Part shown: positions 14,363-61,308 of the stretch, piece by piece
Position numbering within the stretch: position 1 is the stretch's first letter
How the letters are laid out: each line of letters opens with the position of its first letter
DNA from: an uncultured virus (IMG/VR IMGVR_UViG_3300037322_000284)
Lineage: Duplodnaviria; Heunggongvirae; Uroviricota; Caudoviricetes
Virus record (IMG/VR): IMGVR_UViG_3300037322_000284
Length of the DNA stretch: 64,000 bases
Strand: one strand, 5' to 3'
Program-made: the position numbers and the translations under genes
Notes under the pieces: generated by a model
Seen by the model: the letters and a program-made list of their open reading frames with translations, nothing else
What the model was told of the DNA's origin: nothing
Databases searched by the model: none

Positions 14363-17152
14363 TTAGTTTTTATTTGTAGTTGCTATTTGTAAATCAATTT
14401 GTTTCATTGCACCTCTTTGTTCTATCTCCTGTCTCTTAATTTTTAACTTCTCTGATTCTATTCTCTTACTTGTATCATCCATATCCATCTTTCTAGATAT
14501 TTCTTCTTGTTTCATTTGCATGTCAGCTATGTGTACTTCTCTTTTAAAGTTTGTTTCATAAGCCTTTGTTATGTCAGCTATGTTATCCTCTTTAGTTGAT
14601 GCGGTATCTCTTCCTATAGCTGTTAAATACGCTTCTTTATACTGCCACTCTCCTTTTATGTTAGCTAACTCTACCTCATGTGCTTGTAGATCTTCTCTAC
14701 CTTCTCTAACAGACTCTAATTGTTTAGTTAATTGACTATCTTCAAATTCTCTTTGTTGTTGTTGATTTGCTTGAGTTCTTGCTCGCATGTCTCTTCCATA
14801 TTGTCTTAAATTTAAAACTATAGGATTTGTAAATATATCTACTAAGTCTCCAAAATCTTTTTGTATGGTGTTGTCATTTAATAACATTTGTTGAAGTCCT
14901 TTCACAACCGCCCTATCTTTAGAAGTAGATGCAGGCATAACCGAAATTCTTCTTAAAGGAAAGTAGTCAGGATCTTCAGCTAATATGTCTATAAAGTTAT
15001 TTGTCCCATCACTATTCTTAACCATTCTATTCGAGGACTTCCCATTAACTTCACACTGTTGTGCAATAGCTATATGCAACTCATTAGACTTAGATTTTGA
15101 AGTATTAAACTCGTCAATAATATTTGACATTAAAGCATAACTTGCTGTTGCTTGTTGACTTACCCCTTCTGCTGTTTCGTACTTTGTGGGGGAGCCTATC
15201 ATTTGAGGCGTGATACCTACTTGTTGAAAACCTTGCTGTTTGAAATATTCAGCCATTTGTTGCCTGTACTGAACTTGTGATGCAAAAACAACTTCGTTTC
15301 TTTGGAATATATTTGGATAGACAGAGCTACCTTGTATGTTACTTCTTGATGGATCAAGTGGTAATAACTTGGTTGATTTAATTGTATTCATTATAGAAAA
15401 TAAAGCTTCCTCAGTTGTTTCGTCTTTATATTCTGCGGGCAGTGTATTTATATCTATTGAGTAGAATGTACCTGGTTCATCTGCTAAAAGTTCGCCAATT
15501 TGATTCAAACAGATGTTATGCAACTGTTGATACGGAAATGCTTTTGTTATTGCTGACTTTCCAATAAGCCCTCCTACAGGGTGTTTTACTTGGTAAATAT
15601 TGCTATCTCCTGGAATTTGTTGTTCTAATGGATCACCCCCTAAAATTAAATCTTCATCCATTATTATGGAATTATTAGATTTGATTACAACCATGTAACG
15701 TGAATGTGGTTTATAGTGCCATGTTAAAGTATTCACATGTTCCACTAAAGTATCCTCTTTTAAAGACTTTTGTAGTTCTTGTAAAGATATTGTTTTCTTA
15801 ACTTTAATTTCGTTTTCCTTAATAAACTCCTTCATTAAGTCTTCCGTAACTGTTTCTACATCTATAGCTCCAACTTCATTTTCGTATATTAAAACTCCGA
15901 ATTTTTCCATTGAAGTCCAGTAAACCTCCATAACTTCTACAGTTGCATTACTAACTTGTATATCACTTCTCAGCTCTTGGCTAAATCCTCTACCTGTAGC
16001 ATTAAAATCTGTACCTGCTCTTGGCATCCAATCGTTTACAACTGTGCCGTCTTCTTGTTTGGTGTATCCTATTGGTGCTCCTAAAGCACTTTCCATTTGT
16101 AAATTTAAATTGTGATCTAAATAATTATGGAAGGGCATTATTAAATTCTCTGCAAAAGGTGCAACACCACCTGCTCCGAAAGGCGTTATTCCAGATTTAT
16201 ATTCAGAACCTTGTCCCCAAAAATCTCCAATTTTTTCTTGTTGCTTTTGATTCATCATATAGCCGTACTTAGATAGAGTATCACTAACTGACATCTCTGT
16301 AAGTCTACCTATAAATTCTGCATCTTGTGGGTATTTAGTATTTGAGTATTCTGAAAAGAAAACTTCTTCTACTTGCCAATCTTCTATGTCGTAGTAATCA
16401 TATCCAACTCTGTAGTGTCTAAACCACCTACCTGTTAAAATATAATCAACAAGACTGTTTTTATCAGCTTCCTCTAAATGAAACTTTTCTTTATCTGCCG
16501 TTAGTACATTACTAGCCCACTCTGTTGCAATAATCTTAAAATTCTTCGATAAATCTTTCTCAATTTGTTCAGGTGTTAAGCTTTTTACTTCTGCATCTAA
16601 TTGCGCCAAATATTGTTGTTTCTCTTCTTCCGATTGAAACTCTTGTTGGTTGGGGTTTATACCCCTCATTATAAGAAGCTTGTCTATACTCCGTTTGAAT
16701 ATAGCTTTAGCGTATTGATTTAACCTCTCAGTCTTTTCTCGGATAAAATCGTTTGTGTAATATTCATCAATTGATTGTACTCTATACTGACTATCCATTT
16801 CTCCAAAAACACTTTTTATAGCATTGGAAATAATACCAAGAAAATCAAAGTGTTTTAGATGTGTTGGAGCACCTACATCAGAGGTTAAAGTTTTATAAGC
16901 TTGAGTTGCTTCGTTTGTACTTAAAGTACTCTCTATGTCTACAGAGCGATATACAAACTCTCCCTCTGTCATTTTTCTTATATCAGAAAACACAGAATTT
17001 CTTCTTCTTTGTCTAGTTGCTTCAAAGTATAGAAAATCCGCATTAGCTTGCAACCAAGCGGGGGTCTTCTTACTTTTTGGAAGTGTCTGTACAGGAAGCA
17101 TCCTTTGTGTGGCACCTCCATTGATTTTATTTAGTACGTTATATTCTTGCAA
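14363..17152 (-). CDS. Portal protein
   Basis: 929 aa; N-terminal 'QTLPKSKKT..W', FPYQQLHNI, GITPQMIG, C-terminal coiled coil; follows TerL. Confidence 0.85.
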   Translation of the reverse strand: MQEYNVLNKINGGATQRMLPVQTLPKSKKTPAWLQANADFLYFEATRQRRRNSVFSDIRKMTEGEFVYRSVDIESTLSTNEATQAYKTLTSDVGAPTHLKHFDFLGIISNAIKSVFGEMDSQYRVQSIDEYYTNDFIREKTERLNQYAKAIFKRSIDKLLIMRGINPNQQEFQSEEEKQQYLAQLDAEVKSLTPEQIEKDLSKNFKIIATEWASNVLTADKEKFHLEEADKNSLVDYILTGRWFRHYRVGYDYYDIEDWQVEEVFFSEYSNTKYPQDAEFIGRLTEMSVSDTLSKYGYMMNQKQQEKIGDFWGQGSEYKSGITPFGAGGVAPFAENLIMPFHNYLDHNLNLQMESALGAPIGYTKQEDGTVVNDWMPRAGTDFNATGRGFSQELRSDIQVSNATVEVMEVYWTSMEKFGVLIYENEVGAIDVETVTEDLMKEFIKENEIKVKKTISLQELQKSLKEDTLVEHVNTLTWHYKPHSRYMVVIKSNNSIIMDEDLILGGDPLEQQIPGDSNIYQVKHPVGGLIGKSAITKAFPYQQLHNICLNQIGELLADEPGTFYSIDINTLPAEYKDETTEEALFSIMNTIKSTKLLPLDPSRSNIQGSSVYPNIFQRNEVVFASQVQYRQQMAEYFKQQGFQQVGITPQMIGSPTKYETAEGVSQQATASYALMSNIIDEFNTSKSKSNELHIAIAQQCEVNGKSSNRMVKNSDGTNNFIDILAEDPDYFPLRRISVMPASTSKDRAVVKGLQQMLLNDNTIQKDFGDLVDIFTNPIVLNLRQYGRDMRARTQANQQQQREFEDSQLTKQLESVREGREDLQAHEVELANIKGEWQYKEAYLTAIGRDTASTKEDNIADITKAYETNFKREVHIADMQMKQEEISRKMDMDDTSKRIESEKLKIKRQEIEQRGAMKQIDLQIATTNKN

Positions 17153-17225: not shown

Positions 17226-19880
17226 TTATCTCCTTTTTTGAAAGAAAGATCTCCTATTATTTTGTGTAAAGAATTGTAGTTTTTTCTCAGTTTTTACTAC
17301 TTCTGGTTCGTGTTTTTTTTCTTGTTTCCTTTTATAATTTTCTGGTATCCAGAATTGTGCGTGTCTTAAATAGTGGGCATAACCGTAGCATCCCATTGCA
17401 CTAGTTATACGATCCACATTTAAATTGTCTGACCAGTTAATAATTTCCTCAAGTAGTCCTAGGTCATCAATTAACTGTACACCTTTCATAAGTTTGATGC
17501 TCCCATCTTCTTGTTCTATTTCATGTACTTCATTACACTCTTCAACAAATAGGTCAAAAAGAAACTTTTTAGATGTCGTTGGATTCCATCCAGTTTTTCT
17601 TTTATTGTTATTTGGGATATTAAAACTTGAAGAAAAATCTAAGCTAGGTGCTAAATATTTATCTGCTAGTTGTCGTCTTTCTAAAAAGTCTTTTATCCCA
17701 TAGTTAAAGTTTTCCCCAAAACAAGTTGTTTCTAAGTTGTAAGCTTCCATTAGTAGTTGCCACTTCTCCCAAACAGTTGAGTGATTTTCTGGTCTAAATG
17801 ATATTGAAGCCACAATTCTCTTTGAAAATATATCTCCTAACACTTCATTCTTTTTAACATAGAATGTAGAGACAGAAGATGTTGCAGCATCATCAGATGC
17901 ATAATCATCAAAACCAGCAGTGTACATACCCCAAGGTGGTTTTGTTTCTGGTATATCCTCAAATATGAGAAATGGTGCGTCTATTATCCCACCTCTATGT
18001 GGAAACGGAGCTAATTCTTTATTGGATTTATTTGCTCTTATTTTTCCTTCACTGTCTCTAAACACATCCATCCTCCTATCCCATAAACCTGTTTCTAGTA
18101 AGTAAGCCTTGTGTGCCTTTGCTTCATTTACTGGGAATCTGTTTCTTGTTCCAGATTGTGTTATCTCTGATGGCTTCAGTGGTGCGTATATAGTTGTCTT
18201 GTGTAACTTTATCTTATCTTTAGATACCGCTTCTCTCTCTGCTCGTATTTTTTCGTTGGCTTTTTCCCAATCAGTTACTTTGATTTTTATTTTCCTAAGA
18301 GACTCACTTTCAGGTTTTCCTAAATAGTCTGCTAATGTGCTTTCCACTTTAGGCATATCCACCCTGCATTGACCTGGAATAAATGTACCAAAAGGTTTTA
18401 ATTTATCTTCTTCCCAAGTTATCTGTTCTGGAGCTATACCTCTCTCAAGTATATCCCATCTCATTGGTAATATTTCATAGGTTTCAGGGTCTAGTAGTGC
18501 TTTTATACCGTCAGATGATAACTCTTCTGTTCCTGCTGTTCCTGTTAACATTCCGAAACATCGTATTGTTCCGTCATCCCCTACCATTGCGGGTATTACC
18601 CCTTCTAAAGATTCTAAAAAAGTACTTTTTAAACATTCATCATAAACTAAAACATCGGGGGTAAAACCAGCAAATATTTCTTTATTGTTCCCTGAATCTG
18701 TATTTATAATATTTAAAGTTGATAATAATATTGTTTTATTTCCTTTAGTTTTAATACCTAATTCAACTTTTTTATCCCAGTCATTGGTTACATTATACAC
18801 TTTAAATGCAGGATTTTTATTCAGGTTATCTAGTTTAAAGTTTTTAGCTAATTGTCCTAAATCTTTTGCGGATGCCCCTGCGCAAAGTAATGTTTCTTTA
18901 CCTATCGTGGCGGAATAGCCAAGTAGACTAGCCTCCCCTGTACTTTTTGCAACACGACGGCTTGCCCCAACGAATAGAAATTTTATACTTTCCATTTCTT
19001 GTATCGCCCTATTTTCAAACAACATCCAATCACTATCTCTAAGTGGAGGATTCATTTTAAAATCTTTTGAAACATATTTTTTTTGAACCTCGTTCCATAC
19101 CTTTCTTGGAATAGAGGCTACAAAAATGTTCATGTGATAGTAAGCCCACCCCGATATATATACTCCGTCTATTTCAATTCCATTTTCGAGTTTTTTAAAT
19201 TCGTCCACATAAAATTGTAGTGTCTCTTTTGTTTGCTCAAAATAGTGTAGATTTATATCCCATTTAGGTACATTATCCATGTATATTAACATCTCGTTAT
19301 TTGGAGGTGTCGTAAAATCTATCTCTTTATACTCTAACTCTTTCAGTATTACTTCTGAATATTCAGGGAGCTCTATAAGAATTTTATGCATTGATAGAGG
19401 TGCTTTTGCATCTGACAAAAATTCAACAGTATTTAAATTTTCATCCCCAAACTTAATATCCAGAGATTCTACAGCATCGTCAATAGCATTGTACTTTTTT
19501 TGAAGAGTGTTATGGAAATCCATCTCCTCTAATTTTAAATCGTTTGTGGATATTTCGTCTAAAGAAAAACCGTTAATATAAGTATCAATTCTGTCCATGT
19601 GGGTGTTGATAACTTTATTAACGTGCGCCACATACTTTTTAAATTGTGGCAGTCTGTGATGTTGGTTTGCTTTTTTGGAAAAAAATTTTAATCGGTCTAT
19701 AAGAATAAGTACAGATTGGTCTTGCACCATAAACTCTTCTTTCTTTGGGTTTATTACTTTTCCGTTCTCTAATATTGTTATTTTACCAAGAATTGTCCAA
19801 TCATTATCTTTAATATATTTTTCGGTCTTTAAAAGTGTACTAATATACTTTTTAATATATTCCTCTACATATTGGCTCAT
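17226..19880 (-). CDS. terL: Terminase large subunit
   Basis: YISGWAYYHMN, ASRRVAKS Walker A-like, VLVYDE Walker B, GTAG coupling motif, AGFDDY and NVDRI nuclease acidic residues. Confidence 0.9.
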   Translation of the reverse strand: MSQYVEEYIKKYISTLLKTEKYIKDNDWTILGKITILENGKVINPKKEEFMVQDQSVLILIDRLKFFSKKANQHHRLPQFKKYVAHVNKVINTHMDRIDTYINGFSLDEISTNDLKLEEMDFHNTLQKKYNAIDDAVESLDIKFGDENLNTVEFLSDAKAPLSMHKILIELPEYSEVILKELEYKEIDFTTPPNNEMLIYMDNVPKWDINLHYFEQTKETLQFYVDEFKKLENGIEIDGVYISGWAYYHMNIFVASIPRKVWNEVQKKYVSKDFKMNPPLRDSDWMLFENRAIQEMESIKFLFVGASRRVAKSTGEASLLGYSATIGKETLLCAGASAKDLGQLAKNFKLDNLNKNPAFKVYNVTNDWDKKVELGIKTKGNKTILLSTLNIINTDSGNNKEIFAGFTPDVLVYDECLKSTFLESLEGVIPAMVGDDGTIRCFGMLTGTAGTEELSSDGIKALLDPETYEILPMRWDILERGIAPEQITWEEDKLKPFGTFIPGQCRVDMPKVESTLADYLGKPESESLRKIKIKVTDWEKANEKIRAEREAVSKDKIKLHKTTIYAPLKPSEITQSGTRNRFPVNEAKAHKAYLLETGLWDRRMDVFRDSEGKIRANKSNKELAPFPHRGGIIDAPFLIFEDIPETKPPWGMYTAGFDDYASDDAATSSVSTFYVKKNEVLGDIFSKRIVASISFRPENHSTVWEKWQLLMEAYNLETTCFGENFNYGIKDFLERRQLADKYLAPSLDFSSSFNIPNNNKRKTGWNPTTSKKFLFDLFVEECNEVHEIEQEDGSIKLMKGVQLIDDLGLLEEIINWSDNLNVDRITSAMGCYGYAHYLRHAQFWIPENYKRKQEKKHEPEVVKTEKKLQFFTQNNRRSFFQKRR

Positions 19881-19882
19881 AT

Positions 19883-21055
19883 TTATGTTATTTGTTTTAT
19901 TGGTAATTTCCTATTGTAACACTCTTGATTACCTGAAAACTTTAATTTTGGGACATACTTATACTCCCTATTCTCTATTTTTAAATCTTCCTCTTTTTTT
20001 GAAGCTTTTCTTCCATCATCAAACACAAAACATTTAATAATTTTATAATTGTAAGGTATTACGCTTTTATTAGGAAACCTATTCTTAATTGTTGTGAAAG
20101 TCTTCCCTATTTTGTAAAACTCTTCTTCATCGTTCCAACACTTTATCAAATAAACTTTAAAACTGTCAAAGTTTTTAGATTTTTCAGCACCTTTTATCCA
20201 ATCACTATATTTCCAACCAGTGTTACTTTCTAAAACTCGTAAATCACCACACTTCTTACACCCACTTCCACTTAAGTGTATATTTGGTTTTTGTTTGAAA
20301 ATACCGTGGTTATCTATTTTACACTCTATCTCTACTTCACTATTACTTTTTACGTAAATTGTTTGAGAGTAGTCATAAAAGTTGCTATGTATTTTATTAG
20401 CTTTTTCAATAAATTGATCGTTTGTCATAATTCTACTCTGAGACTTTAACGCATTTCCACAAGATGGGCATCCACTACCTTTTAAGAAATTATTTACATC
20501 TTTAGTAAAATCACCATGTATTCTACATGTAACTGTTATTTTTGTTTTTGAATCAGTATATAAGGTTTTACTGTAATCATATCTATCTCCGTGTTTATCT
20601 ATAAATTTTTGTAATTGTATAGAGTGGTCTTTTTTTAGATTGTTTCTCCTAACTATTTCTCCGCATTCAGAGCAACCACATGTTCTTAAGTGTACTTCAG
20701 GTGTAATATTAATTTCACCATGTGTTTTACATGAAATTTTTACCTTAGTAAATTTATTGATAAAAACAACACTAGAATAGTCATATTTATCTTTGTGTTT
20801 TAATATAGACTTATTTAAAAAATCAAAATATGTTAATGAATTACATATCCCAGTCTTTTTACTTCCGCATTTTCTACATCCTCTACCACTTAAATGTGAA
20901 TTTGGAGTTTGCTCAAATCTATGTTTTAATTTATTACAGGTTATAAACACTTTATCCGAATCCTTTACATAAACCACTTCACTATAATCGTACTTATCCC
21001 CATGTATGGCTGTTGCGTCTCTTATGAATTCCTCTCGTGTTTTCTTCTTTCCCAT
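19883..21055 (-). CDS. Homing endonuclease-like protein: four zinc-ribbon repeats plus GIY-YIG-like C-terminal domain
   Basis: Repeats of H(G)DKYDYS..CxxH(G).F...GCxxC; C-term VYLIKC..FYKIGKT. The ATG at 21076 lies inside the mini-IS end, so 21055 (MGKKK) is the likelier start. Confidence 0.75.
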   Translation of the reverse strand: MGKKKTREEFIRDATAIHGDKYDYSEVVYVKDSDKVFITCNKLKHRFEQTPNSHLSGRGCRKCGSKKTGICNSLTYFDFLNKSILKHKDKYDYSSVVFINKFTKVKISCKTHGEINITPEVHLRTCGCSECGEIVRRNNLKKDHSIQLQKFIDKHGDRYDYSKTLYTDSKTKITVTCRIHGDFTKDVNNFLKGSGCPSCGNALKSQSRIMTNDQFIEKANKIHSNFYDYSQTIYVKSNSEVEIECKIDNHGIFKQKPNIHLSGSGCKKCGDLRVLESNTGWKYSDWIKGAEKSKNFDSFKVYLIKCWNDEEEFYKIGKTFTTIKNRFPNKSVIPYNYKIIKCFVFDDGRKASKKEEDLKIENREYKYVPKLKFSGNQECYNRKLPIKQIT

Positions 21056-21069
21056 ATTAATTATATTTT

Positions 21070-21211
21070 TTGACATACTCCCACAGCTAAAGCAAGTGAG
21101 ATTCTTGAAAACGCTTAAACTATTGCCTTACGTTACCTCCAAAGGAAGATGCCCCTTCCAAATACCTGTTCGTTTAAAGCCCCAAGTGATAGGGTGTTCT
21201 TGAACGAGGTC
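21070..21211 (-). mobile_element. Non-autonomous mini-derivative of the tnpB element (partial left end fused to right end/omegaRNA scaffold)
   Basis: Reverse complement reads cctcgttcaagaacaccctatcacttggggcttta (=27755-27789) joined to aacaggtatttggaaggggcatc...gggagtatgtcaa (~29068-29168, few substitutions). Confidence 0.92.
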
Positions 21212-21229
21212 ATAAAACAACAAAAGAGG

Positions 21230-21655
21230 CTACGAAAGCCCCTGTTTATTTTGTTCTTGTGCTATTGCAATGTCCACTTGTTGTTTTTTGTAGGCATCGT
21301 ACAATCCATTGTCTACTATTTCTTTTTTGCCGTTCTTTACTGCGAAAGTATACTTGACATCAAATCCTTCTAGTTCTTTTACAATCTCCTTTGGTATTTC
21401 TATAATATCTTTAGCTAAATTATAATAATGAAATAACCTAGTTTTAATCTGCATAAAATCTATATTTAGCGGATGAAGGTACCCTACGGTATCAAAAAAA
21501 AGTTCTGCATAATCTTTTGGAGTTTCCATTTCAAGGACTCTTTCTGCCATTGAACTCCTTTTATTACCCATATCTTTTGTTTCCGCTTCAAGGAATAATT
21601 TGAAGTCTAGATATTCTTTAAACGCCTGTTCTATATCTGTTTGTATTTTTGACAT
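21230..21655 (-). CDS. Hypothetical protein
   Basis: 141 aa ORF; its 3' end forms a hairpin plus T-tract. Confidence 0.6.
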   Translation of the reverse strand: MSKIQTDIEQAFKEYLDFKLFLEAETKDMGNKRSSMAERVLEMETPKDYAELFFDTVGYLHPLNIDFMQIKTRLFHYYNLAKDIIEIPKEIVKELEGFDVKYTFAVKNGKKEIVDNGLYDAYKKQQVDIAIAQEQNKQGLS

Positions 21656-21669
21656 TATTCTTTTATTTC

Positions 21670-21876
21670 TTAGTCTGTGTAAAATGTATCTGAGTAGTAG
21701 TCACTCTTTATGGTAGTTTTCAAAGCATCATATATCTCTTGATTGGTTAGATCGTAAAACTTTTTCTTTGCTGTCTTTTCTATTTGTGTTAGCTTTTCTC
21801 CCGCCGAAAATCCGTCATTAATGCAAAATAAATCTCCTATCAATTCTGCTATAGCCCCTTCTAATTTTAATTGCAT
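21670..21876 (-). CDS. Hypothetical protein
   Basis: 68 aa ORF coupled in operon. Confidence 0.5.
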   Translation of the reverse strand: MQLKLEGAIAELIGDLFCINDGFSAGEKLTQIEKTAKKKFYDLTNQEIYDALKTTIKSDYYSDTFYTD

Positions 21877-22190
21877 CTCCCTGTTAATTTAATTAATCCT
21901 AATTGTACGTTTTTATATTTTACTACCACTGTTTTTGCAAAGTTCATATCACAATCTTTATAAGTCAACTTTACAGACAGTCTCTGTTTATCTAAGACTA
22001 AATTGTTGTTTGTGGTACAACCACATTTTGGTTCTATAGTAAATAGTGTTGAGTCTTCAACTCCTGATAGGATTAACTCTACTGTTTTATCCTCAGCCAT
22101 TTTTACACTGCCCATATCAACTGTAAACAGTATCCCCTCTTGTGTGAGTGTGTATTTATTTGTAATTTTTTCTACTGTCATTGTTTCCAT
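21867..22190 (-). CDS. Ig-like protein (DUF1573-like)
   Basis: PKCGCT motif and beta-strand pattern. Confidence 0.55.
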   Translation of the reverse strand: METMTVEKITNKYTLTQEGILFTVDMGSVKMAEDKTVELILSGVEDSTLFTIEPKCGCTTNNNLVLDKQRLSVKLTYKDCDMNFAKTVVVKYKNVQLGLIKLTGRCN

Positions 22191-22570
22191 TTATTTTTAG
22201 GGCAAATTTCTAAATCCTCCATTGTTTTATAATATATGCTACAGCTTGAACAGGCTAAACAATTTCCTAAATTATCTTGATCTAAAGTTCCACAAATCCA
22301 GGAATAAAAATCTGATAATTTTATAATAGCTTTCTTATTCCAAGGTATACTTTCTGAATTTTTAGAATTGAATGGACATGTATTACATACCAATCTTCTA
22401 CCTCTTACTTTTTCTGTTACCACTTCTTTTTTAAAGCGACTTCTAATTATAATTAAAGCCGTTGAGAGGGGAGTTGAAAAAAGGTTGCGGAAACTAAGCC
22501 CACTATATAAATCGCTAAAAATGCGACAAAAACTTACCCCTCTCTCTTGCTTTTTCTTTTTACTTATCAT
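22178..22570 (-). CDS. Cys-rich (zinc-binding) hypothetical protein
   Basis: CNTCPFN, CLACSSC, CPKNKW. Confidence 0.6.
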   Translation of the reverse strand: MISKKKKQERGVSFCRIFSDLYSGLSFRNLFSTPLSTALIIIRSRFKKEVVTEKVRGRRLVCNTCPFNSKNSESIPWNKKAIIKLSDFYSWICGTLDQDNLGNCLACSSCSIYYKTMEDLEICPKNKWKQ

Positions 22571-24488: not shown

Positions 24489-24559
24489 TGATTTATGGTG
24501 TAATGGTAACACAACTGTTTTTGAAGCAGTCATTTTAGGTTCGAGCCCTGATAGATCAA
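24489..24559 (+). tRNA. tRNA-Gln(TTG)
   Basis: Acceptor tgattta/tagatca, D-arm gtg-taatggtaa-cac, anticodon stem actgt/gcagt with loop ttTTGaa, T-arm ttagg-ttcgagc-cctga. Confidence 0.85.
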
Positions 24560-27739: not shown

Positions 27740-27880
27740 AAACAGCATTATTACCCTCGTTCAAGAACACCCTATCACTTGGGGCTTTAGCCGAGGGATG
27801 AATTGAACTTGTTACAACCATTGTCAAAGAGTTGCGTATTAAATATTATTGTATTACCTTTGTATCAATAAAGTATAACT

Positions 27881-28009
27881 ATGGAAAAGAGAGAAAAAAT
27901 AGTGCCTGTTAGAGTTTCTTTAGAAGAAGAGAAAACCTTAACAGATAAAGCTAAAAAGATTGGATTAAAATTATCAACATATTTGAGACTTGCTGGATTA
28001 GAAAAATGA
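27881..28009 (+). CDS. Small ribbon-helix-helix (CopG/MobC-like) protein inside the IS
   Basis: MEKREKIVPVRVSLEEEKTLTDKAKKIGLKLSTYLRLAGLEK; ATGA overlap with tnpB. Confidence 0.7.
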   Translation: MEKREKIVPVRVSLEEEKTLTDKAKKIGLKLSTYLRLAGLEK

Positions 28010-29118
28010 TTAAAACTTATACCTATAAACTGTACAATAATGAAAAATACTCATCAAAATATGATGAGCAAATATCAGTATGCAGAATGGTGTATAACGT
28101 AGCAAAAGAGGTAAAAGAAGAGTCTTACAAGAAAGGTGTAAGTATTAACGGATTTGCCTTATCAAAACAACTTACGGAAGCTAAAAAAGAATTCCCTTGG
28201 TTAAAAAAAGTACACAGTCAAACACTTCAAGCTATTTTAGAAAGACTTGAGGAGGGATATAAAAAGTTTTTTAGAGATTTAAAAGCGGGAAAAACTTGTA
28301 GTAAACCTAATTGGGCTAAAAAAAGCAAATTTCAAACACTAACATTTAAACAAAATGTAAAAAGAACTGTTCAAGGATTTAAGTTACCTGGTTTTGGAGA
28401 AGTCAAAATATTCAACAATGAATATTTTTTTGACGGAATAATAAAACAAGCTAAACTAACTAAAAAAGCTGATGGATTATATTTGAATGTAATTGTAGAA
28501 ATTGAAAATATTAAAAGAGAGAATCAATCTAATAATATTATTTCAATTGATATGGGGATTACAAGATTTTTAACCACCTCTGACGGAGAAGTAATTGAGA
28601 ATCCTAAACACTTATTTAAAAAGATTAAAGAGTTAAGGGTTACTCAAAGAAAGTTAAGTAGGAAGTATCAAAAAGGTAAAAAACAATCTTTAAATTACTA
28701 CAAACAAGTGAACGTAGTTGCGAGATTACATAAGCAAGTTTCAGACACAAGGAAAGACTTTTTACATAAAGTTACTACCGATTTAGCAAATAATTACGAC
28801 TTAATAGTTGTTGAGGATTTAAACATTCAAAAGATGGTTAAATCTTCTAAACTAGCTAAACATATTTTAGATTGTAGTTGGGGTATGTTTTTTGAACTTT
28901 TAAAATCAAAGATAGAAGTTGTTAAAGTTAATCCTGCGTACAGTTCTCAAGAATGTTCAAAATGCGGGCATACTTGTAAAGAAAATAGACCAACACAATC
29001 TATATTTAATTGTGTAAAATGTAAACACACAGCAAATGCGGACGACCAAGCTTGTATAGTGCTGTTAAACAGATATTTGGAAGGGGCATCTTCCTTTGGA
29101 GGTAACGTAAGGCAATAG
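28006..29118 (+). CDS. tnpB: RNA-guided endonuclease TnpB
   Basis: KTYTYKLY N-term, SIDMG (RuvC-I), VVEDL (RuvC-II), CSKC..CVKC zinc finger, NADDQA (RuvC-III). Confidence 0.95.
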   Translation: MIKTYTYKLYNNEKYSSKYDEQISVCRMVYNVAKEVKEESYKKGVSINGFALSKQLTEAKKEFPWLKKVHSQTLQAILERLEEGYKKFFRDLKAGKTCSKPNWAKKSKFQTLTFKQNVKRTVQGFKLPGFGEVKIFNNEYFFDGIIKQAKLTKKADGLYLNVIVEIENIKRENQSNNIISIDMGITRFLTTSDGEVIENPKHLFKKIKELRVTQRKLSRKYQKGKKQSLNYYKQVNVVARLHKQVSDTRKDFLHKVTTDLANNYDLIVVEDLNIQKMVKSSKLAKHILDCSWGMFFELLKSKIEVVKVNPAYSSQECSKCGHTCKENRPTQSIFNCVKCKHTANADDQACIVLLNRYLEGASSFGGNVRQ

Positions 29119-29185
29119 TTTAAGCGTTTTCAAGAATCCCATTTGCTTTAGCTATGGGAGTATGTCAATACATGGAGGAGGGTTT
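29068..29185 (+). ncRNA. TnpB omegaRNA (reRNA) scaffold plus flank-derived guide
   Basis: Overlaps tnpB 3' end; hairpins ggaagg-ggca-tcttcc and ccca-t...a-tggg; ends at TCAA (29168); boundaries approximate. Confidence 0.7.
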
Positions 29186-29193
29186 AGTAGAGT

Positions 29194-29631
29194 ATGAAGA
29201 AATATAAAAAATTAGATTATAACACAAAAGATTTAGAAAGTTTGAGTACTTCCGATTTAAAAAAAGTTTGTGATTATTCTTTAAGACACTACTTATTAGC
29301 TAACCAAGAGTCAACTTATTATTTTTGCCCACTAAAAGAAAAAAACTATTCTACTGATAAGATGCATGTAGCCCATTTTTATGATAGAGGTATAATGTCA
29401 ACTCGTTATGATTTAAATAATTGCCACTTAATTTCAAGTCAATCTAATACGTGGGATTCTCAAATTCCAAAAGAAGGTTACAAGTCTCTACACCATTATG
29501 AATATGAAATATGGTTACATCAAAAATTAGGTGAAAAAAAGTTTAAAGAATTGTTGTGTAACTCAAAAAAATTGATTACATTTGCAAAAGAAGATTATAT
29601 AAAGCTAATTAAAAAGTTTAGAGATGAGTAA
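29194..29631 (+). CDS. NinG-like recombination endonuclease
   Basis: HVAHFYDRG...TRYDLNNCH motif. Confidence 0.7.
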   Translation: MKKYKKLDYNTKDLESLSTSDLKKVCDYSLRHYLLANQESTYYFCPLKEKNYSTDKMHVAHFYDRGIMSTRYDLNNCHLISSQSNTWDSQIPKEGYKSLHHYEYEIWLHQKLGEKKFKELLCNSKKLITFAKEDYIKLIKKFRDE

Positions 29632-30040
29632 TGAATCACACCCTTTTCATAAATTAATGTCTTTTGTTGAAGAGTATAATGAAAATAGAGAAAGCTTCAA
29701 TATGGAAAAGCTACAGTTAATGAGAGAAGATATTGCAATTAATCTTCTTTTACTTTCTGACAGTGTTAGTCAAACTATTGCTAACGCAGAAAGTAAAGAC
29801 TATGATAGAAAACGATTTTATGCACAAAGAGAAGAACATTATAGAAATGAAATAGACGAAAGAACAGGTAAAAATTACAATGTAGCTGATTCAGAGAGAT
29901 TAGCGAGATTAGATGCTAAAGAGATTGATGAAGCTTGCGCTTTTGCATATAAGCAAAAAGAGAGGGCGAGGTTAACAGTCATAGCTATTCAACAAATCTT
30001 GAACTCAATTAGCGGACGAATTTCTAATTACAGTAAATAA
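29624..30040 (+). CDS. Hypothetical helical protein
   Basis: 138 aa coupled ORF. Confidence 0.6.
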   Translation: MSNESHPFHKLMSFVEEYNENRESFNMEKLQLMREDIAINLLLLSDSVSQTIANAESKDYDRKRFYAQREEHYRNEIDERTGKNYNVADSERLARLDAKEIDEACAFAYKQKERARLTVIAIQQILNSISGRISNYSK

Positions 30041-30960
30041 TGTATCCTCAACAAAAAAATCACTCCCAATTTAAAGAGGAGTTTTTTAATAAAAGCACAA
30101 AATTTTCCGAAAAAACCCTACGATTTATAACAGAATACGAAAATGTCAAAAAGCACTTATTGGTAGAATTTGAGGACTACGTATATAAAATAACCCCTAA
30201 TAATTTATTTAAAGGTAAGGATCTGAATATAATGTCTTTGTTAAATAAAGAAAAGTATATAGAAAAAGAACTTCTAAAGTTAGGTATAAACTTAAAAATC
30301 GTAGAAGCAATAATATTTAAGAAAATAATATTTGAAACTAAGTATGGAAAATGTAAATTACCGTTTGATAAAATAAAAAAGTTTTCAAAACCTAACATAT
30401 CTTCAGCTATAAAGAAAACCGAGTTTATGATTAATGAGTTTACAGAGAAACATGGTAATAAGTATAACTATACGGGATCTGTATTTATAAACGCTATTAC
30501 AGAAGTAGATATTATTTGTAAGTTGCATGGGGTTTTTAGACAAGGGTATCCTCAACATAAAGCAGGTCAGGGTTGTCCGAAATGTGCGGGCATATCTAGA
30601 AAAGAAAAAACAGTTGGTAATGGGGGATGGGGTCACAGAGATTGGGAGATAACAGCTGAAAAATCAAGCAATTTCGACAGTTACAAACTTTATATAATTA
30701 GGGTATTTAATGATGAAGAGTCTTTTTACAAAATAGGTAGGACATATAGAAAAATAAAGAAAAGATTTGCTGGATTTATTTATAACTATGAAGTAATACA
30801 AATAAGGGAATCATTCACACCCGCTAAAATATATTTTTTAGAAAAAGTTTTTAAGGAGTATAATAAAGAATTTAAGTACGAACCAAAGAAAAAGTTTCAC
30901 GGTTACAGAGAGTGTTTCTCAAAAATAATAGATATAAATAATGGCGAAGAAATTAGTTAA
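30040..30960 (+). CDS. Homing endonuclease-like protein (same family as 19883-21055)
   Basis: HGNKYNY..CKLHG.F..GCPKC and LYIIRV..FYKIGRT...FHGYRECF. Confidence 0.7.
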   Translation: MYPQQKNHSQFKEEFFNKSTKFSEKTLRFITEYENVKKHLLVEFEDYVYKITPNNLFKGKDLNIMSLLNKEKYIEKELLKLGINLKIVEAIIFKKIIFETKYGKCKLPFDKIKKFSKPNISSAIKKTEFMINEFTEKHGNKYNYTGSVFINAITEVDIICKLHGVFRQGYPQHKAGQGCPKCAGISRKEKTVGNGGWGHRDWEITAEKSSNFDSYKLYIIRVFNDEESFYKIGRTYRKIKKRFAGFIYNYEVIQIRESFTPAKIYFLEKVFKEYNKEFKYEPKKKFHGYRECFSKIIDINNGEEIS

Positions 30961-31942
30961 AGACGGAGAAGAAGAATTAACAGCAATTGAAAAAATGTAT
31001 TTAAAGTATAATAAGACTGAAAATATATTTAACCCACCAACAGTAGATTTAGGGGATATTGATGTTTCAGTAGAACGATTAAAAAATCCCTTTCTATCAT
31101 TTGATAGGTATTTAGGTGGAGGTCCTGCTTACGGAAAAATTACAACTTACTCGGCTTTTGCCTCTTGTGGTAAAACTTCTTTGGCCTTAGCTTTTGCGGG
31201 AGTAAATAAAGATAAAGTTATTGGTTTTTGTGATAATGAGTTTAATTGGAGCGATTCTTCTTACATATGGATTGACAAGTACTTTGGTATAGAAAAGGAA
31301 AGAATACATGTACTACAACCAACATATCTTGAGGAAGGTGCAGAAATGGTTGAAGATTTATGTAATGTAGCAGATATTGTTATTTTTGATGGGTTTGATT
31401 CACTTGCCCCTAAAGCAGAATATCAAGCAACAATGGAAGAAATGCAAATGGGGCTTCAAGCTCGAGCATATAAAAAATTCTTCAGAAAAACAATGGGTAA
31501 AATATATAAAAGCAAAGCATCACTTGTAGTCACAAATCATTTATATGAAAATATTGGAAATGTATTTGAGCCTTTTAAAGAACCAGGTGGTAGAGCGATA
31601 CATGATTTTGCAAGTCAGAAATTATACCTTACTAGAAGTAACACAAAAGACAAAGAAAAACAAACTGTAGGACAAGATGTAAACGTAACAGTTAATAAGG
31701 ATAAATTATCAGGGCATAGAGGAGCAAAGTTTTCACTACCTTATAATAATAGAACAGGCTTTGATATAGAAATGGATATTTTAAATAATGCGTTAGATTT
31801 AAAAATAGTTCAACAGACAGGGGCTTGGTATGCTTATGATGGCACAAAAATTGGTCAAGGTAAGGATAATGCAAGAGACACATTGAAAGATAATCCTGAA
31901 TTAATGTTAGAAATAGCTAACCTCTGTAGAGAAAAATTTTAA
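30941..31942 (+). CDS. recA: RecA/UvsX-like recombinase
   Basis: ASCGKTSLAL Walker A, VIFDGFDSLAPKAE, MGLQAR, PGGRA, GAWYAY..KIGQGKDNA. Confidence 0.92.
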   Translation: MAKKLVKDGEEELTAIEKMYLKYNKTENIFNPPTVDLGDIDVSVERLKNPFLSFDRYLGGGPAYGKITTYSAFASCGKTSLALAFAGVNKDKVIGFCDNEFNWSDSSYIWIDKYFGIEKERIHVLQPTYLEEGAEMVEDLCNVADIVIFDGFDSLAPKAEYQATMEEMQMGLQARAYKKFFRKTMGKIYKSKASLVVTNHLYENIGNVFEPFKEPGGRAIHDFASQKLYLTRSNTKDKEKQTVGQDVNVTVNKDKLSGHRGAKFSLPYNNRTGFDIEMDILNNALDLKIVQQTGAWYAYDGTKIGQGKDNARDTLKDNPELMLEIANLCREKF

Positions 31943-32075
31943 TATAGAAGCATAACAAAAAAGCGAAAAAAGGTTCGTAGTAGCTTCCCACCAAACCAAG
32001 AACCTCGAAAAACTCACTAGAAATAAGGAGAGTTGTTAGGGTGGGAATTTTTTAAATAAATAAAACAAAAAAATT

Positions 32076-32255
32076 ATGAAAAAATTACTATTATTCCTCT
32101 TAGAGGTAACAGGAGAAATTTCAGTTCAAAAAACTGGAGAAAAGGCTTTAAAAAGTGGTTTGTATAGAAGTGGTAAGCAAGTAATTCCATTAGCTAAGTC
32201 AGAACGGTTTCCACCTAGTGAGGATAATGTTTGGAATTTAGTTGTTTCTGTTTAA
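32076..32255 (+). CDS. Small YjzC-like protein (not in ORF track)
   Basis: 59 aa: KTGEKALKSGLY...IPLAKSERFPP. Confidence 0.55.
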   Translation: MKKLLLFLLEVTGEISVQKTGEKALKSGLYRSGKQVIPLAKSERFPPSEDNVWNLVVSV

Positions 32256-32286
32256 TTTTTTCGGCGAAAAATAAAAAAACAACAAA

Positions 32287-32670
32287 ATGACAGACGTAAT
32301 TTATATTTACTTTATAATTAATGCTTTTATAGCAGGATACACCTATAAAGATACCTATGGTTGGGAAACTAAGTTAACTTCTATTTCATACACTTTTTTT
32401 GCTTTGCTAGTAGGAATACTATTTTATATAATATTATTTATTATTAATGCCTCTGCTCCGATATTAGGATGGACTCATATAGAGATCAAATTTCAATACA
32501 GATTTCATTTTACGAAATATTGGGATAAAATACTTTTAGACGATAATTATTCTCCGATATACAAAACATTAGAAGATAAATTAGAAAGGGCTGAGAAACT
32601 TACGAGAGGTAGTTCAAAACAAGTGAGAAGGCACAATAAAAAAGTAAAAAATAGATATGAAAAACTTTAA
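32287..32670 (+). CDS. Membrane protein
   Basis: Two hydrophobic helices. Confidence 0.6.
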   Translation: MTDVIYIYFIINAFIAGYTYKDTYGWETKLTSISYTFFALLVGILFYIILFIINASAPILGWTHIEIKFQYRFHFTKYWDKILLDDNYSPIYKTLEDKLERAEKLTRGSSKQVRRHNKKVKNRYEKL

Positions 32671-32806
32671 ATAGTGCAGAAAATGGTTAGGGGGGTAATC
32701 GGTACAAACATGAAAACACATTTCAGTTACCGTGTTTATATTTTGATTATTTTTGGGCAAAGTATGGAGAGATTAATAGATACACAAAGGTAGTAGAAAC
32801 AGAAAG

Positions 32807-33235
32807 ATGGCAGTAAAAAAGAAAGAAACAGTAGAATGGACTTATAATAATATTATAGTAGATAACATTTTAAAAACACCTGAAGGTTCCCTAGCATTCA
32901 TTTACAAGATATCTTTACTTGATGGCACAGGTCGTTATTATTATGGCCGTAAAACTATGTGGAAGCCACGCTATACGAGCGGTAAAAATAAAGGAATAAG
33001 TAAGGGGTTGTATGTTTGGCGAACTTACTGTGGTTCATCAAAGGAACTTACGGAATTAATCAAGGGTAATACACCTTACAAAAAAGAAATACTCAAATTC
33101 TGTTTCTCAAAAGCAGAAACAACTTATGAAGAAACTAAACAAATACTTTGCGGGGGAGGTTTGACAGACCCTCTATGTTTGAATTTTTGGATAAAAAGTT
33201 TGATTTACTCTAAACATTTAGAACCAAATAGTTAA
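32807..33235 (+). CDS. GIY-YIG family endonuclease
   Basis: FIYKI...YYYGRK...WRTYCGSS..L...KKEIL. Confidence 0.75.
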   Translation: MAVKKKETVEWTYNNIIVDNILKTPEGSLAFIYKISLLDGTGRYYYGRKTMWKPRYTSGKNKGISKGLYVWRTYCGSSKELTELIKGNTPYKKEILKFCFSKAETTYEETKQILCGGGLTDPLCLNFWIKSLIYSKHLEPNS

Positions 33236-35427: not shown

Positions 35428-36003
35428 ATGGAGAGTAATGCTAGGCATTTTATTGGTAACGTTGAAGTAGATAAAGAGGATATTAAAAATTGTACAACTA
35501 GTGCCACAAAAAAGAGTGGAAAGTCTATAAGTACAACTATGTTTCTTGATGAGGTATTAAGTGAGTTATTTTCAGATTGTAATAATACAAGAAAAAAAGA
35601 TAACAAGTATGATGAAAAAAATTGGGGAGTACTAAAAAATAACTTTAAAGGTTCTGTTTTTGAAACAACAGAGCATCCACTAAAAGAAACAAAGGGTGTT
35701 AAATATAATGATGGTAAATTACCTCTAGATATTATGCTAACAAGACAGTTCCCAAAAGCTTTAAATGCAGTGTGTCAAGCAACTATGTTTGGACACAATA
35801 AGTATAAAGATACAGATGTCGATTTTTTAAATTTTAAAAAAGTATTAGGGGGGAGTCAAACTTATGCGGATGCTTTACAAAGACACAGTGTTGACAAAAG
35901 TGTAATAGATTTAGACAGTGGATTGCCTCACATCTTTCATAAATGCTGGAATGCATTAGCAGAACTTGAATTATGGATTGAAGAAAATAAATTTGCACAT
36001 TAA
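35428..36003 (+). CDS. dATP/dGTP diphosphohydrolase domain (DUF5664-like) protein
   Basis: GVKYNDGKLP...FGHNKY...YADALQRH...SGLPHIFH..WNAL. Confidence 0.8.
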   Translation: MESNARHFIGNVEVDKEDIKNCTTSATKKSGKSISTTMFLDEVLSELFSDCNNTRKKDNKYDEKNWGVLKNNFKGSVFETTEHPLKETKGVKYNDGKLPLDIMLTRQFPKALNAVCQATMFGHNKYKDTDVDFLNFKKVLGGSQTYADALQRHSVDKSVIDLDSGLPHIFHKCWNALAELELWIEENKFAH

Positions 36004-37238: not shown

Positions 37239-38312
37239 ATGGAAGACAAGGTAAAAAGATTTGTGGAATTATCAATTAAATTCACAAAAAAAGTAGATGA
37301 TCTATTTAATAGTCCTAATACTGATATTACTAGTATTTCAGGCACTCTTATGAATTATACAGGCACTGTTATGAATTGTATGGTTACCCTTAGTGCAGAC
37401 TCTTCTCAAAACTTTGTAGAAAAGTCAAGGTCTGAAAAAATGCAGGAACAAACGGACGGATTAAAACTTTTGTCGGACGAGTATGATGAATACTTACACC
37501 TACAAAAGAACTTATTAAACTATTACAAATCGTTAGAAAATTTAAATGGAAAATAGAGAGTTAGTAAACCCGTATGAATACTCATACGAACAAGATCAAT
37601 TGATTTCAATAAACGCTAATGCTGTAACTGTTATAATGCAGTTCTTACAGCAAGTAATTGAAAAAGAGCCCTCAGTAGGTGCCTTAAGAGTATACCCTAA
37701 AAAAGTAGACGAGATTAAAGATGAAGATGGTAACTTATTAAAAGTTGCTATTGATTGGGCGGAACACACAGCAAACAGTTTCTTTTTTACTGCTGCTGAG
37801 GAAAATGGAGCTGTACCTATAACCACGGAGATATCTCTTAAAGCAAACCAATTACTTTTTGCACTCACACAAATACACCAAGATAATATTAACAAAGGGA
37901 TTGCTAAAAAATCAGAAGAAGTAAATGGAGAAGGAGTTTTTAAATCATAATCACTATTTAAACTTTATAAAAAAAATGTTAAAAGCTACTTTTGTCGGTT
38001 GGGAGACTTACAAAGGTAGCAAAACATTAAAAGTGATAATAGACGGCAAAGTGTTTCCTATGAAGTTAAGTGATGGAGATATAACGGAAGACACGTACAG
38101 ACAACTAATAACAGAACTAATGACCCCAAATGAAAAGGAATAGCGAAGATTTTAAAAAATTATACACGTGCCTAAGAGAAACAGAAGAGTTACATCAAAT
38201 GTTTAGAGGTATGAGTGGAGATTGGGAAAAAGATAAAAATAAATTTATAGAGTCACAACTTATAATTGAGGAAATGGCGAATATAGTAGATATAGAGTAT
38301 GACCAAGAGTAA
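37239..38312 (+). other. Four hypothetical ORFs (37239-37556, 37546-37950, 37925-38143, 38130-38312)
   Basis: Overlapping, translationally coupled ORFs. Confidence 0.6.
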
Positions 38313-39843
38313 TAATATTTTAATTGACGATTACAAGAAATTAGACGCTGGTTTTTTAGAAGCGTGTGACGCTGTAGCAAGGACTTTAGGAGTGGAAGGA
38401 AGATTAGCTATATTAGATAACAACACAGACCCGCCTATTGTAACAAAAGATGGTGTAAGTGTTATGAAGCACATAAGGTTCTCTAATAAAACCATGAATT
38501 TTGGAGCTTTACAGGCAATTGCAGGTGCGGCTAGAACTTTAGAAAAATCAGGAGATAGTACAACAACAACAGCAGTTTTTATGCAAGGTTTTTTAAGAAA
38601 ACTAAAGCGTGAGCACTTTAATAAGGCAGTTGAGAGAGGAATTTATAAAGGAGTTGAAGAAGTTTATAAAAAATTGGAAATTCTTAGTAAAAAAGCCTCA
38701 AAGTCAGACTTAAAGCGTATTGTAAAAACCGCTTGTAATAACGACGAAGATTTAGCCAATATTATTATACAAGCTTTCGACTATGCAGGTAAAGATGGCA
38801 TAGTAGAGTGTATTCAAAATAAAGACAAAGATAAAACAGAGTTTGTGAAGCAAGATGGGATGCTTTTAGATTCTCACGGGTATACATCACCTTTCTTTAT
38901 AAATAGAGAAGATAAAACGGTTTGTTTTGATGGGCAGAACGTTGGAATAATTTGTTCAGCCACTTGGGAGTACAGTTCTAAAATTATAGACTCTGTTAAG
39001 CATTTTTATTCTGAAAATAATAAAAAAACACCACTTGTGATTTTCTTAGAAAGACCTCACACAGATATGACTGATAAGCTTGTAGGAATAAAAGAAGTAG
39101 GTTATAATGTTTGTTGTGTGGCTACTAATGGGTATAATGAGTATGAAAGTCAAACGTTACTTGAAGATATCGCAAACTTTACAGGAGCTTCGGTTTATAA
39201 TCCTAGAGATTTAGAGAGTAAAGTTATTTTTGGATTAGCCGATAAGGTGGTTATTGATATAAATTCTACAAGTATTGTAGTTGAAAATATTCCACAAATT
39301 ATTAAAGACAAAGTAACAGCTTTAGAAAAAGCCGATAAAAAAGATAATAGAAGAGTTAAGAGACTTAAAGGAAAAGCCTCAATCATTGAAGTTGGGGGAC
39401 TAACACCAAGCCAGCAAAAAGAAACCTTTGACAGAGTAGAAGATGCAATTGCTTCAGTTAAAACTACAAATGTTGAAGGGTATATTGCAGGAGGGGGGAG
39501 TACCTTAGTTTATATTTCAGGCATAATGGATACTAAATTAGTATCTAAAGAAGAACAAAGAGGGTATGATTTGGTTAAAGTAGTTTTAAAAGAACCCTTT
39601 CTTAAAATTCTAAGCAATGCCAACAGAAGACAAAGCTTTTTTGGAAAACCTTATCTTAAGTCCTGTAGTAAATATGGATTTGGGTATAACGCCTCAACAG
39701 ATGAAATTGCAAACCTTATAGATGATGGAGTGATTGATTCCAAAAAGTCTATTAGGATAGCCTTAGAGTCAGCTACCGAGAGGGCAATTCAAATGTTTAA
39801 TATTTCCGTCATTGTTCATTTTCCTCAAGAGATGACTTTATAA
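38299..39843 (+). CDS. groEL: Phage chaperonin GroEL-like
   Basis: TKDGVSV, GDSTTT, DRVEDAI, EGYIAGGG, GVIDS. Confidence 0.92.
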   Translation: MTKSNNILIDDYKKLDAGFLEACDAVARTLGVEGRLAILDNNTDPPIVTKDGVSVMKHIRFSNKTMNFGALQAIAGAARTLEKSGDSTTTTAVFMQGFLRKLKREHFNKAVERGIYKGVEEVYKKLEILSKKASKSDLKRIVKTACNNDEDLANIIIQAFDYAGKDGIVECIQNKDKDKTEFVKQDGMLLDSHGYTSPFFINREDKTVCFDGQNVGIICSATWEYSSKIIDSVKHFYSENNKKTPLVIFLERPHTDMTDKLVGIKEVGYNVCCVATNGYNEYESQTLLEDIANFTGASVYNPRDLESKVIFGLADKVVIDINSTSIVVENIPQIIKDKVTALEKADKKDNRRVKRLKGKASIIEVGGLTPSQQKETFDRVEDAIASVKTTNVEGYIAGGGSTLVYISGIMDTKLVSKEEQRGYDLVKVVLKEPFLKILSNANRRQSFFGKPYLKSCSKYGFGYNASTDEIANLIDDGVIDSKKSIRIALESATERAIQMFNISVIVHFPQEMTL

Positions 39844-61262: not shown

Positions 61263-61308
61263 TTACTGCTAACTCATCGCTTCTACCATATTTAATACAC
61301 GACCATCC

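Follow-up and report, generated by a model that had tools for sequence, protein, structure and literature searches.

The window, by which we mean the whole stretch of DNA analysed (64,000 nt), is part of a large tailed-phage genome with a low GC content (30.6%). Genes for the portal, the large terminase subunit (terL) and a free-standing endonuclease are found on its minus strand, and the leader of the endonuclease gene contains a short element, 21070-21211, which we refer to as the mini. A longer element on the plus strand, 27752-29168, is referred to as the full copy. The region around the mini contains the following features (LE and RE, left and right end; positions in the RE are counted back from its last nucleotide, -1).

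14363-17152, minus: portal gene
17226-19880, minus: terminase large subunit gene, terL (PHROG 6681, 1.1e-70)
19883-21076, minus: free-standing endonuclease gene (PHROG 681, 9.4e-57; PHROG 559 'HNH endonuclease', 3.6e-47; Pfam DUF4379)
21050-21069, minus: predicted guide of the mini omegaRNA, comprising the endonuclease leader and first codons (sequence)
21070-21211, minus: mini-element, a protein-less internal-deletion derivative of a TnpB element (repeats; covariance-model match at 21070-21173, 85.0 bits)
21070-21170, minus: RE part (-101 to -1), omegaRNA core (alignment, covariance model)
21149-21153 with 21072-21076, minus: pseudoknot of the mini, loop and tail partner (covariation)
about 21079-21101, minus: stem D of the mini with its UUUA loop; stems B and C are also in the RE part (family structure model)
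21144-21159, minus: stem A of the mini (family structure model)
21171-21174, minus: four-base filler at the deletion junction (sequence and alignment)
21175-21211, minus: LE remnant, 35 nt plus GA (21210-21211), in which the LE hairpin is reduced to its 5' arm and loop (repeats, LE comparison)
21212-21215, minus: TTAT, the transposon-adjacent motif (TAM) adjoining the left end (shared contexts; the empty allele breaks here)
21225-21243, minus: terminator-like hairpin with a T tract, closing the upstream 141-aa gene and directly 5' of TTAT

A repeat search of the window returned two inverted matches, 21065-21170 against 29068-29173 (106 nt, 94%) and 21170-21209 against 27755-27794 (40 nt, 95%). 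The mini has an RE of 101 nt (29068-29168 = 21170-21070, with four mismatches) and an LE of 35 nt (27755-27789 = 21209-21175), in agreement with the initial annotation, which had described a ~142-bp inverted copy, ~6.5 kb from the full element, that joins 35 bp of left end to ~100 bp of right end. In an alignment of 14 sequences the conservation of the RE ends after TGTCAA in all of them; since every RE of the family stops there, the true boundary is 29168 in the full copy and 21070 in the mini, and the extra 5 nt of the RE repeat match are chance matches within the flanks. At three or fewer mismatches the RE 24-mer occurs twice in the window and never in 100 shuffles. In order of coordinates, the mini consists of RE positions -101 to -1, the 4-nt filler, 35 nt of LE and GA, after which comes TTAT on the minus strand. 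What remains of tnpB is its last 17 codons, and no protein-coding gene lies within the 142 nt. We regard it as confirmed by these sequence comparisons that 21070-21211 is an internal-deletion derivative of the phage's own Arc(RHH)-TnpB IS605-family element. The 19 nt past the mini RE, which had been named as its guide, are indeed the leader and start of the endonuclease ORF beside terL, and the guide has a single exact copy in the window.

The full copy is made up as follows.

27752-29168, plus: full-length non-autonomous IS605-family element with an Arc-like ribbon-helix-helix (RHH) gene and tnpB, no TnpA; TAM TTAT at 27748-27751
27754-27797, plus: LE hairpin CCCTCG...CGAGGG, then ATGAAT (DNA folds, comparison)
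27881-28009, plus: 42-aa RHH ORF, NikA-like/Arc-type, overlapping the tnpB start (ATGA) (Pfam PF21983, 7.3e-11)
28006-29118, plus: tnpB, 370 aa, D-E-D present (Pfam, structure-homologue alignment)
29064-29168, plus: omegaRNA core, overlapping the last tnpB codons and stop (89.3 bits)
29169-29188, plus: predicted guide of the full element (sequence)

The TnpB protein matches three Pfam families (OrfB_IS605, PF01385, 1.1e-27; TNB zinc-ribbon, PF07282, 2.3e-13; PF12323, 4.7e-5). It is homologous to ISDra2 TnpB (PDB 8bf8, E = 4e-36; also 8exa and 8h1j) and keeps the D-E-D set, its residues lying opposite D191, E278 and D361 in the alignment to 8bf8; we take these to be the catalytic residues as numbered in ISDra2 TnpB, with positions counted in the alignment. 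On this comparison the phage TnpB looks catalytically intact. Pfam gave no Y1_Tnp match among the 64 window ORFs scanned, and tblastn of the window with three upstream ORFs, two of which are the Y1 TnpA of L027 and L031 (more distant relatives that carry tnpA), reached a best E of 0.58. With no Y1 TnpA in the window, the full element is taken to be non-autonomous. Its RHH ORF is preceded by TAccTTTG, which resembles the Bacteroidota -7 promoter box (consensus TAnnTTTG), and an RHH ORF with such a promoter-like motif lies upstream of tnpB in most relatives (L008-L010, L019-L021, L023-L025 and L028-L030). TTAT precedes the LE in all five contexts of the close group, namely the full copy, the mini, L029, L020 and one metagenome context.

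A nuclease and recombination cluster (29194-33235) comes right after the full element; its genes are listed here with other annotated features of the window. The PF18909 domain is linked to phages that replace adenine with 2-aminoadenine.

24489-24559: tRNA gene (Rfam, 59 bits)
29194-29631: NinG/Rap-like gene
30040-30960: second paralog of the terL-adjacent endonuclease
30941-31942: RecA/UvsX-like recombinase gene
32807-33235: SegE-type GIY-YIG endonuclease gene
35428-36003: ORF with a dATP/dGTP diphosphohydrolase N-terminal domain (PF18909, 3.1e-16)
38299-39843: GroEL-like chaperonin gene (PHROG 5725, 5e-74; Pfam Cpn60_TCP1)

Left end and omegaRNA scaffold of the mini

Nine of the ten full-length LEs fold, by our own reading of the DNA folds, into a hairpin just before (G)ATGAAT, and the stems covary (CCCTCG/CGAGGG, CCCACG/CGTGGG, CCAACG/CGTTGG, CCCCG/CGGGG and CACAC/GTGTG). 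The LE of L020 folds in a different register, and for L037, an eleventh locus, the fold is of an unrelated stretch, since the motif could not be located there. A CTTTAG motif is common to the LE and RE loops in several loci; similar end hairpins are expected when one TnpA binds both ends, as in the IS608 mechanism. Because the LE of the mini stops inside the loop, no hairpin can form at that end, whereas the RE retains its own. The absence of the 3' arm, together with the ATGAAT that follows it, is borne out by the LE comparison and the DNA folds, and with it the suggestion made at the outset that the mini is probably immobile. Having lost the LE hairpin, it is better called PATE-like, or a decayed PATE, than a PATE proper. 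For an element that cannot move, the task a guide usually has, that of cutting the donor joint after excision, does not apply.

To describe the scaffold, TnpB relatives were gathered from IMG/VR (4 loci), genomes (7) and metagenomes (22), and the 3' ends that reach the RE were aligned. From 14 full copies RNAalifold derived 38 pairs, with compensatory change in 22, and all four well-supported helices fell within the last ~91 nt. Stem A spans -90 to -75, stems B and C together make up a long hairpin around the tnpB stop codon, and stem D is the RE hairpin, with a UUUA loop at -22 to -19. A covariance model (R1) built from 15 sequences matched 23 sequences across 29 sources; in the window it has exactly two matches, the full copy (89.3 bits) and the mini (85.0 bits), and the mini of the related phage fragment G001, described below, scores 87.2 bits. 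Standard pairs fill 95.9% of the pair cells in the 23 sequences, against 74.7% in column shuffles (none of 500 reaches the observed value) and 38-47% with slid partners; the alignment was fitted to the model and favours the structure, a bias that the slid-partner controls share. Both sides of the pair have changed in 24 of the 32 pairs of this alignment.

The loop of stem A pairs with the tail at -7 to -3 in a pseudoknot, all five pairs of which are present in 16 of 18 sequences. It covaries as GGCAA/UUGUC (n = 10), GGCAU/AUGUC (n = 5) and GACAA/UUGUC (n = 1), the second form being that of the window full copy, the window mini, the G001 mini, L018 and L028. In L032 and L033, the most distant of the 18, the loop was missed by the pattern, and by eye they have a four-pair or bulged pseudoknot. 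RNAalifold also put forward a long-range GACA/UGUC pairing (columns 46-49 with 243-246). We discarded it, since it shows no covariation at all and falls in Cys-Gly-His codons, and since the loop-to-tail pseudoknot accounts better for the same tail.

The 5' edge of the module was located independently by comparing synonymous codons across 13 tnpB genes. Their identity, about 0.50-0.55 at baseline, is 0.52-0.54 over codons 342-358 and climbs to 0.79 only in the last codons (357-367); because the rise is confined to the end of the gene, the strongly constrained module is placed from near -95, inside the 101 nt that the mini retains. The minimum free energy fold of the mini reproduces stems A to D, with the LE remnant folding separately. 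Single-sequence folding energies were no better than those of shuffles (z = -0.67, -1.04 and +0.11), and Rfam at the gathering threshold found only the tRNA in the window, with E-value scans of both copies giving chance-level hits far below gathering. The initial annotation had predicted that the retained RE covers the omegaRNA scaffold; by comparison of the 23 members, the whole covarying core, four stems and pseudoknot, does fall within the 101 nt, and as far as that comparison shows no essential 5' scaffold sequence has been lost. The scaffold of the mini appears structurally complete.

A separate observation concerns tnpB codons 322-341 (28969-29028), where synonymous identity is 0.69-0.71 against a baseline of ~0.52. 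The segment is absent from the mini and is divided from the omegaRNA core by a stretch at baseline. A possible explanation is a further constraint acting on the RNA, such as an mRNA segment contacting the omegaRNA as proposed for AmaTnpB; another is simply that the zinc-finger codons are conserved.

Related phages, the empty site and exchange of sequence

G001 is an IMG/VR fragment of 32 kb that differs from the window by 102 mismatches over 9,652 nt, and it carries a mini at the same site with identical flanks. The RE of this mini is identical to the RE of the window full copy at 101 of 101 positions, including the cccat/atggg allele of the RE hairpin, which indicates that the mini is young and that its intactness needs no selection. 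The window mini differs from it at four positions (21084, 21096, 21099 and 21165), and no further difference between window and G001 is found from 20474 to 21601, that is, 611 nt before and 437 nt after. The differences at 21084, 21096 and 21099 are the ctcac/gtggg allele of the full-length element in L018, a metagenome contig whose TnpB is 95% identical. The hairpin change between full copy and mini (cccat/atggg to ctcac/gtggg) is present as first described, and the fourth difference between the two REs, at -96, lies outside every stem. The suggestion that had been drawn from the change, namely that preserved pairing is a sign of selection, is not supported for the mini: the same allele occurs in the full-length L018 element and the other one in the G001 mini. 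The hairpin differences are therefore two family alleles moved by recombination or gene conversion, and de novo compensatory evolution in the mini was rejected on the same evidence. As a cluster, the four differences point to a gene conversion tract.

The full element has itself been mobile within the phage group. Together, L029 (1250-1766) and L018 (1-888) make up a full-length copy, 93-95% identical, at another site in a related phage; their flanks match the window at 58140-59132 (94.6%) and 61263-61517 (91.4%). In G001, two small ORFs occupy the place of the window's full element. We conclude from these differing sites that the element moved, even though no TnpA is encoded in the window. 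G002, a complete relative of 146,490 bp with terminal repeats and a TerL 78% identical to that of the window, shows the order 145-aa gene, hairpin with T run and then terL directly. Both the endonuclease gene and the mini are absent at this site in G002, which has no R1 match and no TnpB, and whose sole endonuclease paralog sits elsewhere. Megablast of 20000-22500 against the GenBank phage collection gave no match.

The runs listed for the stretch are seven, all of DNA and none of RNA, from salt lake metagenomes, and the contigs of four (X1-X4) were examined; the contigs discussed here are single and of low depth. In X4, a 153-nt contig matches 21212-21291 before its sequence departs from that of the window; read on the minus strand, it has the terminator, TTAT and the first 6 nt of the guide, after which come a different leader and start codon. 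This empty site fixes both boundaries, after TTAT and after TGTCAA, and the insertion is therefore precise: in the empty allele TTAT is followed at once by the RE flank, as expected for insertion 3' of TTAT without target duplication. With 6 nt of match, the X4 allele is no target for the guide.

Four loose ends in X3 (at 21070, 21164, 21175 and 21215) fit one short element in another context. Reconstructed from them, it appears to be a second mini, which has an LE with complete hairpin, a 9-nt linker and an RE from -95; with its own flank and guide it would, if real, be a mobilisable PATE of the same element. The other loose ends lead to the full element (21170 and 21175; X2 and X4) and to the left flank of L029 (21216; X1, X2 and X4). 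A contig joint in X1, 19771 to 21742, may represent a relative without the whole block.

An allele that the guide of the mini could cut would have TTAT joined directly to the endonuclease leader. Such a joint is present in no contig of the four runs, where contigs break at the repeat, and the 23-mer of guide plus leader occurs in IMG/VR only in G001, which has the mini. The 20-nt guide of the full element has no IMG/VR match. The best near-match to the mini guide in the window (44948, two mismatches) was rejected, being preceded by AACT and not TTAT. In all, IMG/VR, the window, G002 and the contigs of the four runs hold no TAM-flanked target, a weak negative given that these collections are small and that contigs lose rare variants. 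The search for empty sites and further minis that had been proposed has thus yielded an empty site in X4 and minis in G001 and, by reconstruction, in X3, the X4 allele matching the guide over 6 nt only. The proposal that the phage TnpB cuts the empty allele in co-infecting relatives finds no counterpart here, since an allele with the endonuclease and without the mini was not found in these sources, G002 having no endonuclease at the site and X4 only the 6 nt.

Transcription, a possible second guide and rival readings

The endonuclease likely starts at the ATG at 21055 (MGKKK). Its longest ORF opens 21 nt earlier and in frame, at an ATG (21076) in the RE tail, so that the insertion may have added seven endonuclease codons or may compete with the native start. 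This ATG (21074-21076) is also part of the AUGUC strand of the pseudoknot. The hairpin at 21243-21225 (minus strand) is the only terminator-like site in 20700-21800. No sigma-70-like promoter was found by scanning between this hairpin and the scaffold or in the mini, and no TAnnTTTG motif of the Bacteroidota type was seen by eye in the mini; the promoter region of the full element is deleted in it. The mini shares its strand with the late genes around it. As there is no room for another promoter before the endonuclease and terL, we infer that transcripts pass the hairpin or start upstream of it, and so carry the scaffold in the sense orientation. In G002, terL likewise follows directly after a hairpin with a T run, and read-through must be needed there too.

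The explanation we favour, to which we give an even chance, is that the mini is a young, immobilised PATE-like remnant with an intact omegaRNA module, probably co-transcribed with its neighbours, from which TnpB could load a second guide directed against TTAT followed by the uninterrupted leader. The element would have inserted precisely 3' of TTAT, between the terminator of the upstream gene and the endonuclease-terL leader, and a deletion would then have taken everything from the LE hairpin loop to RE position -101. Read-through transcripts into the endonuclease and terL would carry the scaffold together with the sequence 3' of it; the full copy, at a distance of 6.5 kb, would provide the TnpB that binds this scaffold and trims its 5' end. 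The ribonucleoprotein would thereby gain a second guide, aaaatataattaatat..., and would cut DNA in which the guide sequence directly follows TTAT, which is the uninterrupted site. The phage's own copy would be safe, the element separating TTAT from the target. Consequences would be expected only where a relative with this leader but no insert infects the same cell: the mini would home, taking flanking markers along by co-conversion, or exclusion would result. That the second guide is supplied in trans is plausible.

The strongest rival, which we regard as a serious possibility although we lean against it, is that the mini is an inert young relic of a full-length or PATE copy, not usefully expressed and without a target, its intactness reflecting recent origin and gene conversion. 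The complete identity of the G001 mini RE to the window's full RE fits this well, as do the four clustered differences between the two minis, three of which are the allele of the L018 full copy. The terminator-like hairpin directly upstream, the lack of a recognised promoter, the destroyed LE hairpin and the failure to find a cuttable allele in IMG/VR, G002 or the contigs of four runs also argue for it; furthermore, the last 100 nt would survive most internal deletions, so their retention is unsurprising. However, the deletion left the scaffold complete to within about 6-10 nt of the constrained 5' edge, and the mini, in the sense orientation, is part of a leader whose transcription is required for expression of the endonuclease and terL. 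The second, independent mini of X3 also retains the RE, from -95. Finally, omegaRNAs supplied apart from TnpB are functional in published assays and are standard in genome editing.

A more ambitious form of the second-guide model, which we consider unlikely, is that the immobilised mini is kept as a weapon or drive of the phage, in which a second guide, independent of Arc and supplied by late transcripts that read through, cuts competitors that have an uninterrupted endonuclease-terL junction. On that account the RNA-guided nuclease and the protein homing endonuclease would jointly force the inheritance of the terL-proximal region, and the exchange between mini and full sequences, along with a second independent mini that keeps its scaffold, would be traces of use. 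Less probable still, and in our view improbable altogether, is a cis role in the endonuclease-terL leader, with the structured RNA, or TnpB binding and 5' processing, modulating translation or stability of the mRNA: the remnant does lie between a terminator-like hairpin and a start codon, the longest ORF does open in frame inside the RE tail, and in the part of PMC10278001 on processing TnpB turns its own mRNA into omegaRNA so that mRNA and guide compete, but G002 expresses terL without such an element and the in-frame ATG may be there by chance as part of the AUGUC pseudoknot strand conserved in the sub-lineage.

Relation to known TnpB systems

The concepts on which the second-guide model draws are already published. 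The part of Meers et al. (2023, PMC10055086) that deals with PATEs describes them as often encoding omegaRNAs and as elements that would be acted on in trans by the TnpB of other elements, that is, as protein-less elements giving an omegaRNA to a TnpB encoded elsewhere. Cutting of transposon-less alleles in co-infecting phages, and likewise plasmids, appears as 'transposon non-restorative homing' in Table 1 of a 2026 review (PMC13565253). Like the Geobacillus stearothermophilus PATEs in that part of Meers et al., the mini is protein-less, keeps an RE with the omegaRNA and would depend on a separate TnpB; unlike them as they are described there, it has a truncated LE hairpin, is phage-borne and lies without a promoter in an endonuclease-terL leader. 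With non-restorative homing, as the review tabulates it, it would share the cut of an element-less co-infecting allele and repair from the element-bearing genome. In lying next to a free-standing endonuclease gene, the type of gene behind such exclusion, it would resemble the intronless homing and marker exclusion treated in the review. It differs from the systems set out there in that the proposed drive would act for an immobile guide cassette, whose target allele was found in none of the sources searched. Particular to this locus are the truncated LE, the promoter-less site in the endonuclease-terL leader, the observed empty site and the exchange of alleles between mini and full copies.

The structural section of Nakagawa et al. 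(2023, PMC10097598) gives ISDra2 a scaffold of 116 nt with four stems, a pseudoknot that pairs -5 to -3 with -103 to -105 next to stem 1, and a UUUA loop at -20 to -17, the 5' part from -231 to -117 being unnecessary for cleavage. The phage scaffold also has four stems and a pseudoknot, a UUUA loop on its last stem and an overlap with the 3' end of tnpB. By that description it differs in being about 91-95 nt long against 116 nt and in having a pseudoknot of five pairs at -7 to -3. Its length is within the range of processed TnpB scaffolds in the relevant part of PMC10278001 (79-466 nt, with 106 nt for AmaTnpB), where TnpB is reported to process its own mRNA to omegaRNA. The phage element further differs from ISDra2 in carrying an Arc-type RHH gene and in its TAM.

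That motif is TTAT in the phage element, whereas ISDra2 uses TTGAT. As it stands, the locus is a clean and well-bounded example of such a remnant, with an empty site, a sister copy and, for this TnpB clade of the Bacteroidota type, an omegaRNA model that includes a pseudoknot and is supported by covariation; the omegaRNA model and the TTAT motif could be reused for annotating related elements. Should TnpB load the remnant, a phage-borne TnpB could carry more than one guide, and a guide cassette could outlive its own mobility, a small step toward the CRISPR-like arrangement of one nuclease with several guides. Beside a homing endonuclease gene and terL, this would, if true, amount to natural RNA-guided marker exclusion between phages.

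Arc proteins, of the ribbon-helix-helix type, are described as repressors of IS605-family elements in bioRxiv 10.64898/2026.09.24.754181, and as far as the Arc-TnpB elements are presented in the relevant part of that preprint the full copy resembles them, with its 42-aa RHH ORF placed upstream of tnpB after a promoter-like motif. The likeness concerns the full copy only. Since the mini, unlike those elements, has lost both Arc and the promoter, any expression of it would escape Arc control.
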